Shown: piece after piece, positions 16,357-20,645 of the stretch
Position numbering within the stretch: position 1 is the stretch's first letter
How the letters are laid out: every line of letters starts with the position of its first letter
Assembly: GCA_030606485.1 (NCBI GenBank)
Contig: JAUWGH010000006.1
Coordinates: 1 to 32,000 of the forward strand
DNA: 32,000 bases
Direction: 5' to 3'
From: Promethearchaeota archaeon
GTDB taxonomy: Archaea; Asgardarchaeota; Lokiarchaeia; Sigyniarchaeales; SOKP01
Notes under the pieces: generated by a model
Database searches by the model: none
The model's input: only the letters and a program-made list of their open reading frames with translations
What the model was told of the DNA's origin: nothing
Translations under genes and position numbers: made by a program

Positions 16357-16529
16357 GATACTATATTTTTTTCCTTCAAATTTTTTATAGATCTATATTG
16401 CGAAAATATTTCGCGAAATATATATTCTTAGAATTTTAAGAAAAAGATATATAGATAAACATTTTATATTTTTAACATAGATAAACTCAATAAAGAATGA
16501 AATATCTCCCTTTCGTTGAGAAAATAATT

Positions 16530-17720
16530 ATGAATAATGAAAAAAAAGAAAAAGATGATTCACTTTCAGATGCCCTATCCGCATTAGGTTGGATAGAAGA
16601 AGAGGAAGGCAAAGAAAGCAAGGAAGAAATGCCGTCTTCTTTGGAAGATCAAGTTAATTTCTTACTGAAAAAAAATAAGCAATTAGAAGAACAAAATTTA
16701 ATGCTAAAAAATTATATTGAACAGTTGGATTCAAGCTCCTCTAAAGCTGAAAAACCTGAAGTACCCGCCGATTTTGAGTCAAAAATTAATGAAAAAGATG
16801 GAATTATTTCTAAATTAACGGCAGAAAGAGATAACATTAAAAAAAAATTAAAAGAACAAAGAGAAAAAATCATTTCCTTGGATTTAAAAGTTGGGGAACA
16901 AAATGATATATTGATTGAAAAAGATAAACAAATCAATGAGTTTTCTATAGAATTTAGCCAATTAAATGAAAAGGAAAATCTAATCAAGCAACTTAAGGCA
17001 AAAATTAAGGAATTTGAATCAGGAGAACATGGTATTAGTGAATTTCAAGAAAAAATTAAACAACGAGATTCTCAAATTCAAGAACTTCATCAACAAATTC
17101 AATATCTTGAGAAAGATACTATCCAAAAGTCTAAGTATGACAAATTAAAAGTTATTATTGAAAAGAAAGATGAAATTATAACACAAAAAGAAAAAGCTCT
17201 TTTTGATAAAGAAAACTCTCTCAGTAAAGCAAAAGAAGAAATTAATGAATTAACAGGAAAAGTTAAAGAAACAGAAAAAATTCAAGAAAAAATAGCAGAA
17301 AAAAATGAAGAAATTAATTTTCTTAAAGGGGAAATAAATCATTTGAATCAACAACTTGAAAAATCCAAATCATTGCAAGATAAAATTAAAGAATTTGAAG
17401 AGCAACTTATTAAGCGAGAAACAGAAAATGTGGAAATCACTAAATCAAGCATGGTAAAAGAAGAAATTGTAAAAAGAGTTGAACAAAAACTCGAATTAGC
17501 TCAAAAGGAGAGTGTAAAAAAAGATATTGAAATTGAAAATTTGAAAATTAATTTCGAGAAAGAATTAGAAGCATTAAAGACTAAAGAGAATAGTTATCTG
17601 GATAACATTCAAATCCTTAAAATGGAAAATTCACGGATGGAAAAGGAATCTGGAAAACTAAAAGATGAAATAATTGATTTAAAAAAGAAAATCAAAGTTC
17701 TACGTAGAGGTAGTTCTTAA
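16530..17720 (+). CDS. Long coiled-coil protein (~396 aa), function unknown
   Basis: Near-continuous K/E/L/I-rich heptads and almost no Pro after residue ~90. The ATG at 16530 (MNNEKKEK) seems a more likely start than 16497, but either is possible. Confidence 0.75.
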   Translation: MNNEKKEKDDSLSDALSALGWIEEEEGKESKEEMPSSLEDQVNFLLKKNKQLEEQNLMLKNYIEQLDSSSSKAEKPEVPADFESKINEKDGIISKLTAERDNIKKKLKEQREKIISLDLKVGEQNDILIEKDKQINEFSIEFSQLNEKENLIKQLKAKIKEFESGEHGISEFQEKIKQRDSQIQELHQQIQYLEKDTIQKSKYDKLKVIIEKKDEIITQKEKALFDKENSLSKAKEEINELTGKVKETEKIQEKIAEKNEEINFLKGEINHLNQQLEKSKSLQDKIKEFEEQLIKRETENVEITKSSMVKEEIVKRVEQKLELAQKESVKKDIEIENLKINFEKELEALKTKENSYLDNIQILKMENSRMEKESGKLKDEIIDLKKKIKVLRRGSS

Positions 17721-17768: not shown

Positions 17769-18026
17769 CTACTTTTCGCGCCATTCACAGCCACACTTTC
17801 CACATTTGTATTTCTTACCCCAAATTCGAGGGTAATCGAGAACGATCACTCCCTTATCGACACTCTCGTGAATCATATGTTTAAGTACCTCACCACATTT
17901 AGGACATTTTCGACGTCCCTCTGGTTTTGGTACGGTTAATATATCTGAGAACTCTTCGCTTGGAGGAGGAGTTTCTGGTTCAGTTTCTTTTTCTGGTTCT
18001 TTATTTTCTTCAGACATTATATTCAT
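17769..18026 (-). CDS. Stand-alone Zn-ribbon protein, paralogous to the C-terminal domain of the adjacent gelsolin
   Basis: CPKC-x30-CGKC preceded by an acidic Pro-rich leader; 43 of the last 57 residues are identical to the gelsolin C-terminus (hand alignment). It may start at the Met at 18017. Confidence 0.8.
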   Translation of the reverse strand: MNIMSEENKEPEKETEPETPPPSEEFSDILTVPKPEGRRKCPKCGEVLKHMIHESVDKGVIVLDYPRIWGKKYKCGKCGCEWREK

Positions 18027-18182
18027 TATTTTTTATTTTGTATAAACATGCAATATGTATATCAAAATCATATTGGTTTACATATTAATCTTTTTGGATT
18101 AATAACGTTTTTCTGAATTAAAAAAATAAAAGGAAATTTAAAATAAATAAATTATTTTATTAGGGAATACTATTTCTTTAGG

Positions 18183-19148
18183 TTACTTCTCCCTCCACTC
18201 TGTCCCGCATTTTCCACACCTATATTTCTTGCCATATACTCTTGGGTAATCCATTATGATGTTATTTTTGTCAATGGTCTCATGAATCATATACTTAAGT
18301 TCCTCGCCACATTTGGGGCATTTACGCCGTCCAATGGGTTTTTCTACTGTTAAAATCCCAGTATCAACATCCATTGCAGTTGGGGTAGGGGGTTCTTTTA
18401 TAGGTTCTATTACCATTTCAGGTTCCTTTACTGGTTCAGGCTCAGGTTCTTTTACCGGTTCAGAGACTTCTTCTTTCTCTAATGCAGATTCTGCAGAAAA
18501 TTGTACATGTTCATCAACAGAGGTCTCAACTTTTTCTTCGAAAATTTTCATAAATTCTGAGTCGTCACCTTCCTCAAAAATAACTTCATTTTGTGATCCT
18601 GCTCTCTCAGCATCAAAACTTCTTGCCCATTGTCCGGCTTTTACTTTTTCTTTAACATTAGTATTCGCACCTTGCCAAATATAAATTTTATCGCCTAAAT
18701 CTGCAATAAAACAATCTTCAGAATCTAAACTTTCTTTTTTAAAGGGTACTTGGATAAATTTCATGGTATTTATATCTTCAAACTCTTCAGAAGAGACTCT
18801 ATAGAGTGTGTTTACATGCTCTCCCGCACCTGACCAATCACCAGTGTCTACATCAATGAGCATAGTCTTTGCTAAATTTTTATCTACGATTTTCATTCCT
18901 CCAACAAGTTGCAAAAACTCTTTAATCTCTTGACCTTGGTCAAGAGTGATGATTTTTGCAGCACCACCTCTTTTTCCATCCAATTCTCTAGCTTTCATTG
19001 CCGCAAATGTTTTTTCATCTACTGAACAATATTTGCCAAGCCATATATAAATTGTTTTTTCATCATCAACAATATAAGTATCTCCAGAGGAAAATATTGG
19101 CTTATTTACTTCCTTTAATTCACCCTTAGCAACTATATATATTTTCAT
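18183..19148 (-). CDS. Two-domain gelsolin (Asgard 2DGel-like actin regulator) with a Glu/Pro linker and C-terminal Zn ribbon
   Basis: Two gelsolin-repeat signatures, FSSGDTYIVDDEKTIYIWLGKYCSVDEKTFA and LDSEDCFIADLGDKIYIWQGANTNVKEKVKA; EPVKEP repeats; CPKC…CGKC. Confidence 0.88.
   Translation of the reverse strand: MKIYIVAKGELKEVNKPIFSSGDTYIVDDEKTIYIWLGKYCSVDEKTFAAMKARELDGKRGGAAKIITLDQGQEIKEFLQLVGGMKIVDKNLAKTMLIDVDTGDWSGAGEHVNTLYRVSSEEFEDINTMKFIQVPFKKESLDSEDCFIADLGDKIYIWQGANTNVKEKVKAGQWARSFDAERAGSQNEVIFEEGDDSEFMKIFEEKVETSVDEHVQFSAESALEKEEVSEPVKEPEPEPVKEPEMVIEPIKEPPTPTAMDVDTGILTVEKPIGRRKCPKCGEELKYMIHETIDKNNIIMDYPRVYGKKYRCGKCGTEWREK
18390..18475 (-). repeat. Imperfect coding repeat, EP(V/I)KEP x3, in the gelsolin linker
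   Basis: The protein reads SEPVKEPEPEPVKEPEMVIEPIKEPP; the + strand DNA shows recurring ggttc…ttt(t)a…ggttc units. Confidence 0.6.
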
Positions 19149-19271: not shown

Positions 19272-20645
19272 TTATTCGTATTCGCTCATAGCTTTTTTAA
19301 TTCTCGAGACAAATTCTGGAATTTTTCTAATATCTATTGAGCTATATGCAATTCTGAAGCCGTTAATTCCTTCATGAGGTTTTTCTATGGGAATTACTCC
19401 AATTTTGTATTTTTTTAGCAACAAATCAGCAAAATCAGTAGCTTTAATCGACTTTAAATTGACAAATAGAAAGAAACCACCACGATTAGGATCAATAGAA
19501 ATTTCATTGCTTTTAATTGTATTCAATTCTTGATTAAGTAAAATATACCTTTTTTCCAACATTTTTTCTACTTTTTTACGGTGCTGTAGGGTTTTTTCAA
19601 TTTCCTGACTTGAGAGTAAAGAGTTAAGAATAGTTTGGTATAAAATATTTGAATTTGAGATTGTGCTTCTTATAAAACCTGAAAATTTATTTTCTATTTC
19701 AACTTTTAACTGTTCTAATTCAAGGTCAGTTGTGATCCAATTTTTATGTATTCCTATAGTTAGTGCACCTATTCTCCCTCCATACATTAATAATTCTTTA
19801 GTTATTCCGTCTAACTTGATTGGAATGATATTTTCTTCCAATTGAAATAAATCATAAAATAATGAGGTTTTTATTGCGTCTATATCATAAGTATATCCTT
19901 CATAGGCATCATCACAAAAAATTATTAATGGTTTTTTGTTTTGGATTGCGATTTTTTTAAATAAATCTATTAAATCACTAGCCTCCTTTCTTGTTGGAAT
20001 ATATCCCGTAGGATTGTTTGGAATATTTAAAATTAAAATTATTTTATCCTGTGTTTTTAACACATCTTGCATCGCTTTTTCTAAGCTTTTTAAATCAATA
20101 GTGTCTTCGGAGAAATAGTTAAAAGATTTTATTTTAGCTCCAATATTTTTTTCTATGATATTATCATAATTACCCCATCTTTTATCTGGCAAGATGATAT
20201 ATTCACCTTGATTTATGAACATACTACAACATGTAAAAATCCCATGAGTAATCCCAGGTGTAAATAGTGTTAAAGTCAGATATTTTTCGAGATCTTTTAA
20301 TGATTTTTTTTTGTTATCATCCAATTGTGATTTCTTAATAATCCAATCTTTCCATCTCTTTCTACTATCAGTTAAACCAGGAATAGAAGCATAAGGTACG
20401 ACATTAGTAATATCAGTATTGAAAAATTGTTTTATATTTTGTAGATAACAAGGAACCCATCGATCTCCTCCAGCCTCAATAAAATCTTTTTCAAAACCAA
20501 ATGCTGCTCCAATTGTTCCACTTATTTCTGCTTCTTTTTTTGCTCTTTCAGCCCAATAAAAAATACTTCGTGGTAAGAAAATCTTTTTTCCGACTTCAGA
20601 AAATGCCTTATAAATTGGAGTATTTTTAATTGTTTCAAATTCCAT
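19272..20645 (-). CDS. Class I/II PLP-dependent aminotransferase
   Basis: LNIPNNPTG, DDAYEG, LDGITKELLMYGGRIG (PLP Lys) and FRIAYS. Confidence 0.88.
   Translation of the reverse strand: MEFETIKNTPIYKAFSEVGKKIFLPRSIFYWAERAKKEAEISGTIGAAFGFEKDFIEAGGDRWVPCYLQNIKQFFNTDITNVVPYASIPGLTDSRKRWKDWIIKKSQLDDNKKKSLKDLEKYLTLTLFTPGITHGIFTCCSMFINQGEYIILPDKRWGNYDNIIEKNIGAKIKSFNYFSEDTIDLKSLEKAMQDVLKTQDKIILILNIPNNPTGYIPTRKEASDLIDLFKKIAIQNKKPLIIFCDDAYEGYTYDIDAIKTSLFYDLFQLEENIIPIKLDGITKELLMYGGRIGALTIGIHKNWITTDLELEQLKVEIENKFSGFIRSTISNSNILYQTILNSLLSSQEIEKTLQHRKKVEKMLEKRYILLNQELNTIKSNEISIDPNRGGFFLFVNLKSIKATDFADLLLKKYKIGVIPIEKPHEGINGFRIAYSSIDIRKIPEFVSRIKKAMSEYE

Follow-up and report, generated by a model that had tools for sequence, protein, structure and literature searches.

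The window analyzed here, a 32,000-nucleotide stretch of contig JAUWGH010000006.1 from a Promethearchaeota archaeon, carries a gene orthologous to that of the extended two-domain gelsolin (2DGel) published from Lokiarchaeota, and the architecture of its product, two gelsolin domains (D1 and D2) followed by a linker (Link) and a C-terminal zinc ribbon (Zn), is real and already known. With a probability of about 0.85, the protein is read as a calcium-regulated, actin-binding orthologue of the Loki2DGel/MKD1-2DGel type whose ribbon would be a separately conserved docking module. The architecture, the homology to a crystallized protein, the conservation of signature residues, and the predicted fold class and distribution of the ribbon are supported directly by the results described below.

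Domain architecture and relation to published gelsolins

A sequence-only reading of the gene had proposed two gelsolin repeats, an acidic, proline-rich linker of about 60 residues with EPVKEP repeats and a four-cysteine C-terminal ribbon, and all of these features are present in the protein (Table 1). The Gelsolin family (PF00626) matches it in two stretches (E 6.9e-27), both above the curated cut-off in a genome-wide scan; the three or six repeats of the eukaryotic gelsolin/villin family were not detected by Pfam or by that scan, which found two. The linker (residues 206-263) is 58 residues long and contains 9 prolines, 17 acidic (D+E) and 5 basic (K+R) residues (pI 4.1), with EPVKEP repeated twice (230-235 and 238-243) and EPIKEP once (248-253). 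The ribbon cysteines, C277, C280, C311 and C314, form two CxxC knuckles within the last 58 residues.

The same reading had also considered this architecture unusual and uncharacterized. A search of solved structures returned an end-to-end match, ribbon included, to chain G of PDB 7WHG, "Lokiarchaeota gelsolin (2DGel)" (residues 1-321 against 1-335, 403.6 bits, E 6.4e-120), and the Zn-module profile matches the tail of that chain (residues 279-334, E 7.5e-29). The comparison with published 2DGels, which the reading had itself suggested, places the architecture among the characterized Asgard gelsolins, and the claim of novelty fails for this reason. The two domains, full-length collinearity, the LxDV motif, the calcium-site side chains and a (CxxC)2 Zn domain with a tyrosine-tipped loop are all found in the window protein, as in the Loki2DGel type. 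A related database protein (P0086) is 57.7% identical.

Table 1. Features of the 2DGel locus, in positions of the window
Feature	Positions	Strand	Basis
2DGel CDS, D1-D2-Link-Zn, Loki2DGel type, 321 aa + stop, ATG start	18183..19148	-	ORF, Pfam, 7WHG alignment
Gelsolin domain D1, about residues 1-90	18879..19148	-	Pfam stretch 19-79; alignments to 7WHG and gelsolin G1
WH2-like LIDV, residues 97-100, in the D1-D2 connector	18849..18860	-	7WHG alignment
Gelsolin domain D2, about residues 116-205	18534..18803	-	Pfam, structure-database alignment, genome scan
Linker start, residues 206-225, semi-conserved VQFSAES motif	18474..18533	-	7WHG alignment
Variable acidic Pro-rich tether, residues 226-263, EPVKEP x2 and EPIKEP x1	18360..18473	-	Sequence
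C-terminal Zn-ribbon module, residues 264-321	18186..18359	-	Profile match to 7WHG tail, AF2 model
Free-standing mini-Zn gene, 85 aa, acidic Pro-rich leader and ribbon; separate related gene	17769..18026	-	
Coiled-coil protein, 407 aa, convergent with the 2DGel/mini-Zn pair	16497..17720	+	
Aminotransferase gene, conserved upstream neighbor of 2DGel	19272..20645		

The crystallized protein, Loki2DGel, is Lokiarchaeum GC14_75 KKK44901.1 (Akil et al., 2022, Commun Biol; PMC9433394). It shares with the window protein D1, the LxDV connector, D2, a linker with semi-conserved first 20 residues and the (CxxC)2 Zn domain with its tyrosine-tipped hairpin, and differs in length (335 aa against 321 aa), in the motif (LVDV against LIDV) and in the variable part of the linker, which is predicted to be helical in GC14_75 and is rich in EP repeats here. 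D1-D2-Link-Zn is the commonest 2DGel architecture in Loki (PMC9433394). It is also that of MKD1-2DGel from Promethearchaeum syntrophicum, a member of a different family of the order; orthologues from the sister family are about 52-55% identical to the window protein. Both have linkers built from proline-rich hexapeptides (PEPVQV nine times in MKD1, EPVKEP/EPIKEP here); the linker of MKD1-2DGel is longer, with 79 aa and nine copies of the proline-containing repeat, predicted to be extended (PMC9433394), and its Zn module carries the states of the sister family (Q5, R25 and others).

Thor2DGel and the extension-less 2DGels of the PDB 7C2G/7C2H group share the calcium-dependent actin-binding two-domain core (Akil et al., 2020; PMC7444086). 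The match to 2DGel3 covers residues 3-203 of the window protein (E 4e-24); Thor2DGel-type proteins lack the linker and the Zn module. Eukaryotic gelsolin, villin, CapG and adseverin have homologous repeats and G1-like calcium-site residues (villin E 1.8e-35, gelsolin E 2.4e-30), although they have three or six repeats and no zinc-ribbon tail. Eukaryotes likewise add targeting domains to gelsolin repeats, such as the villin headpiece and the leucine-rich repeats (LRR) of flightless; the appended Zn module occurred only in Asgard archaea among the genomes searched. The case for a calcium-regulated actin cytoskeleton older than eukaryotes depends centrally on Asgard gelsolins, and the window gene leaves this case unchanged, because it is one more orthologue of an architecture already crystallized and assayed.

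Conservation of the gelsolin core and variation of the linker

The 2DGel gene was present in all 60 related genomes searched, and the ribbon ends each of the 32 complete orthologues (loci whose frame no contig end cuts), 28 of them from the window's family and 4 from the sister family, so that the layout recurs far more often than chance would allow. Outside these two families, in more remote ones of the same order and class, only the gelsolin core is matched. A ribbon-seeded database search found over 100 separate clusters (90% identity) of proteins near 335 aa in length that combine Gelsolin domains with the ribbon.

Conservation was measured in a set of 33 sequences composed of the window protein, 31 other complete orthologues and the database protein P0086. 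Mean identity to the window residue was 0.65 in D1, 0.66 in the connector, 0.72 in D2 and 0.71 in the Zn module, against 0.39 in linker residues 206-225 and 0.23 in the remaining linker; the Zn module is thus conserved to the same degree as the gelsolin domains and the linker is not. The candidate type II calcium-site residues D23 and E45 of D1 are invariant (33/33), as are the candidate residues E167 and D179 of D2, and at the candidate type I residue D57 and its D2 counterpart D145 no fewer than 90% of the sequences agree with the window protein. In the computed alignment D23, E45 and D57 correspond to D66, E97 and D109 of gelsolin G1, and D145, E167 and D179 are their equivalents in D2. Within LIDV, L97, D99 and V100 are invariant (33/33); position 98 is isoleucine only in the window's genus and lysine in 31 of the 33, giving the family consensus LKDV. 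D99 aligns with Asp102 of Loki2DGel, which coordinates calcium in the LVDV motif of that protein (PMC9433394).

The window genome also encodes four actin-family genes (best 445 bits) and two single-domain gelsolins. Given the conserved signature residues and the presence of actin genes, calcium-dependent binding and regulation of Lokiactin through D1, the connector, D2 and the linker start, as published, would be the likeliest function, the actin and calcium activity of this particular orthologue being presumed from homology. Published orthologues were assayed by gel filtration, pyrene-actin, sedimentation, TIRF and in-cell experiments (PMC9433394). Strength and mode of action differ between orthologues, because in solution assays with rabbit actin the GC14_75 protein had little effect; MKD1-2DGel showed robust calcium-dependent severing and 1:2 sequestration of actin (PMC9433394). 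The weak effect of the GC14_75 protein and the isoleucine at position 98 count against the actin-regulator reading of the window protein. In the mechanism proposed here, the aspartate of LxDV (LIDV in this protein), with calcium bound, would mimic the basic residue of WH2, D2 and the first 20 or so residues of the linker would sit on actin, and the outcome would depend on the orthologue, being monomer sequestration, severing/capping or bundling. In the Loki2DGel structure, the first 20 linker residues are ordered on the actin surface (PMC9433394).

Beyond that segment the linker would be a disordered, acidic, proline-rich spacer, free in sequence and length. Its length ranges from 52 to 102 aa across orthologues and takes values of 52, 58 and 66 aa within the window's genus, as EP[VI]KEP units were gained or lost. 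Repeats of the EP type arose independently in three or more further lineages, such as (EP)n in G025 and EEPKEEP in G016. Most members of the family have a stretch of the type AAPGIPG ahead of the ribbon, which is absent in the window's genus and has EP[VI]KEP repeats in its place. This pattern fits a spacer selected for acidity, extension and flexibility rather than for sequence.

The free ribbon gene and co-variation with the gelsolin-borne module

Downstream of 2DGel, at a distance of 156 bp and on the same strand, lies a small gene (mini-Zn) whose ribbon is 75% identical to that of 2DGel over 57 aa. Oligo-T runs after the 2DGel stop codon and a TATA-like box before the mini-Zn ATG suggest that the small gene may have its own transcript; a scan for sigma-70-type promoters and terminators was set aside as uninformative, the host being archaeal. 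A free mini-Zn gene of 62-88 aa is found in nearly every genome of the order. The order aminotransferase, 2DGel and convergent coiled-coil gene is conserved across the family, and the coiled-coil gene (26-39% identical) occupies the same convergent site downstream of 2DGel in most genera. Only in the window's genus is mini-Zn inserted between the two, in tandem with 2DGel; elsewhere in the family it encodes 62-68 aa and is located on other contigs. In the sister family mini-Zn is convergent beside 2DGel in two of the four genomes examined (L036 and L037) and lies 4.4 kb away in a third.

The adjacent mini-Zn gene may be a recent partial duplicate or a relocated orthologue, and a maximum-likelihood tree of 57 Zn modules did not separate these origins (57 columns; five of its rows, an unrelated 115-aa helix-hairpin-helix-plus-ribbon ORF, are disregarded). 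As a side observation, several genera of the family (L042, L045, L048, L050, L051 and L054) encode, 1.3-1.9 kb from mini-Zn, a protein of 115-122 aa whose N-terminus is helix-hairpin-helix-like and whose C-terminal CxxC...CxxC ribbon is of another kind.

Four columns of the 57-aa core distinguish the two families; free and fused modules follow their own family at all four, and no column separates free from fused modules. This co-variation is essentially one family split, the sister family being represented by four gelsolin-borne and three free modules. It points to a constraint that free and fused copies may share, exerted by the same partner or by each other, or to gene conversion; independent duplications could also have produced it.

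If the copies constrained each other, Zn modules would bind one another, so that a homotypic module would cross-link 2DGel, GTPase-like and coiled-coil carriers and mini-Zn would act as a cap or competitor. The lineage-wise co-variation with no type-specific columns, the presence of a free copy in nearly every genome of the order and its proximity to 2DGel in the window's genus and in part of the sister family are in line with such binding. However, a shared third partner or gene conversion predicts the same co-variation, and bundling was not reported under standard low-speed sedimentation (PMC9433394); homotypic binding is considered unlikely. Complex prediction with the 2DGel Zn module, the mini-Zn protein and two zinc ions (score 0.02, mark 0.32) gave no evidence either way.

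Distribution, fold and proposed role of the ribbon

Earlier work reported homologous Zn domains both at the C-termini of multi-domain Loki proteins that are otherwise unrelated and as small proteins in their own right, and did not find them consistently beyond Loki (PMC9433394). A profile search of 1.84 billion representative proteins recovered 472 clusters at E<=1e-3, with carriers of 35 to 920 aa. In 142 of 146 the last CxxC lies at most 15 residues from the C-terminus. Most carriers have no Pfam domain; gelsolin, Ras/Roc, TPR, LRR or coiled-coil-type matches occur in a few of them. Among 251 sampled genomes of the phylum, multiple copies are confined to this order, whose two sampled families carry between 3 and 13 strong matches in each genome (54/54 and 5/5 other genomes); the genomes of several other Asgard families contain a single, weaker match each. 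Five such genomes, from five other Asgard families (L060-L064), were inspected, and in each the match is a stand-alone protein of 48-66 aa with the signature CPKCG...DK...Y...P[IV]Y[AK]KK...CxxCGxEW, which is shared with the module. No curated family covered these stand-alone relatives in the Pfam and NCBIfam scans, and the matches of both the ribbon and its distant stand-alone relatives in these databases are generic, sub-threshold zinc-ribbon families. The stand-alone relatives modestly extend the published statement on the distribution of the Zn domain beyond Loki (PMC9433394). Because single-copy stand-alone relatives occur in other Asgard families, their distribution suggests that the free mini-protein may be the older form.

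The strict module ends three proteins in the window genome, namely 2DGel, the adjacent 85-aa protein and a protein of 326 aa. The module of the latter (L003 1492..2472, minus strand; G000:C12) is 55% identical, and its N-terminus has a sub-threshold Ras match (E 1e-3) in which the P-loop position appears degenerate (GSNYEKS); a clear Ras/Roc-plus-ribbon fusion was found among the database representatives. Two looser relatives of the ribbon in this genome end a 293-aa proline-rich/glutamine-rich coiled-coil protein (L004 1498..2379, minus strand) and a 119-aa coiled-coil protein (L005 1294..1653, plus strand); they have the pattern CPxC...Y.P.PIYAKK..C..CG.EF, closer to the single-copy ribbon of other Asgard families than to the strict module. 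At two of the five stand-alone loci the next gene on that strand encodes a protein of 156-180 aa whose N-terminus is coiled-coil-like, the two proteins being weakly related (E 3e-7); this neighbor had no detectable relation to the coiled-coil-ribbon fusion of the window genome.

[quoted passage not shown] Its best Foldseek neighbors are the ribbons of TFIIS domain III, RPB9, RPA12 and RPC11 (probability up to 0.97, E>=0.096), VIA-align returns NrdR (Z 4.0) and TFIIS (Z 3.5), and the 46-module profile matches the T. celer RPB9/TFS ribbon 1qyp over both knuckles (E 5.4e-5). Ribbons of the TFS/TFIIS domain III/RPB9 type resemble the module in having four cysteines, a hairpin (predicted in the module) that separates the knuckles and a WRE at the end of the C-terminal knuckle, and the knuckle [FY]xCxxCxxxWRE is common to the module and the TFS of the window genome. 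These similarities and the basic character of the ribbon would be expected of a nucleic-acid- or RNA-polymerase-binding finger derived from such ribbons, which would link actin regulation to transcription or RNA. This reading is highly unlikely, however: hhalign of the ribbon against the genome's TFS spans 13 columns (the last knuckle) with a probability of 33%; PF01096 (Zn_ribbon_TFIIS) is not among the Pfam matches of the window protein at E<=1; NCBIfam TFS_arch scores 16 bits (E 0.014), below its cut-off of 64.75; and the fusion partners are cytoskeletal, GTPase and coiled-coil proteins rather than nucleic-acid enzymes. The hairpin between the CxxC pairs also has 30 residues, six more than the 24 of the TFS type, and the acidic D-E tip that forms the catalytic loop of TFS is not present (DYPRVYG, in general DYPRxYG, against RSADEG in the genome's TFS). 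Since hhalign spans the last knuckle only and the hairpin tip is non-acidic, homology to the genome's TFS is not supported and, with these weak scores, TFIIS-like is best taken as a fold-class label for the predicted ribbon, not as a demonstrated derivation from TFS. C2H2-finger matches (PRDM9 and others) in the profile search of solved structures were discarded as knuckle-only.

Most likely the ribbon serves for docking at a cellular site common to its carriers, whatever the carrier. The basic ribbon (pI 9.3) would dock its carriers to one shared partner, which may be a protein complex or else an anionic surface, for instance a membrane, and the free mini-Zn protein would bind the same site as the carriers' ribbons. 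A latch that holds the protein inactive when calcium is absent, the ribbon turning back onto the gelsolin core (acidic, pI 4.7) or the linker, comparable with the latch helix of six-domain gelsolin, is a very improbable alternative: the opposite charges and the long flexible tether would permit it and autoinhibition of this type is established for eukaryotic gelsolin through its C-terminal latch helix, but the module also occurs on its own and at the end of unrelated proteins, for which reason a carrier-independent target is favored. The crystal with actin and calcium has no electron density for Zn or for Link past its first 20 residues (PMC9433394), which bears neither way on a calcium-free latch.

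The authors of the published work left the role of the tails open and considered binding to a cellular feature or complex probable; in their hands no co-sedimentation of the isolated Zn domain with F-actin was seen, and in human cells a GFP-Tail fusion gave a diffuse signal (PMC9433394), results that say nothing on an archaeal partner. The docking role of the ribbon and the existence of a partner are probable. From the sequence-only reading, which had proposed an actin regulator tethered to an unknown target, an Asgard 2DGel with the ribbon as probable tether is retained, a hypothesis shared with those authors, and the uncharacterized status of the architecture is not. The fold class, the C-terminal position, the stand-alone relatives and the co-variation narrow the search for a partner without naming it, a question already flagged in 2022 (PMC9433394).

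A wider, tentative and on balance doubtful extension of the docking reading is that an ancient single-copy mini zinc-ribbon protein multiplied in this order and was fused to many C-termini (2DGel, Ras-like and coiled-coil proteins) as an "address tag", so that the carriers would share one hub for which the free mini-protein competes. If true, regulators of the cytoskeleton would be recruited by a primitive system of this kind.

A protein identical to the window protein is public as a hypothetical protein, and the 2DGel locus was seen again in cold-seep and marine-sediment metagenomes from several studies. Pieces of 31 letters at 18117-18151 were dismissed as low-complexity noise. Parts of the gene that RNA-library contigs leave uncovered say nothing about its expression. 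Positions 18609-19143 are covered by a contig from one metatranscriptome, with 17 differences that indicate a related strain, and positions 18193-18433 by a contig from the metatranscriptome of another study; at about 97-98% identity, both matches give a weak hint of expression in close relatives, contigs from RNA libraries being no proof of it.
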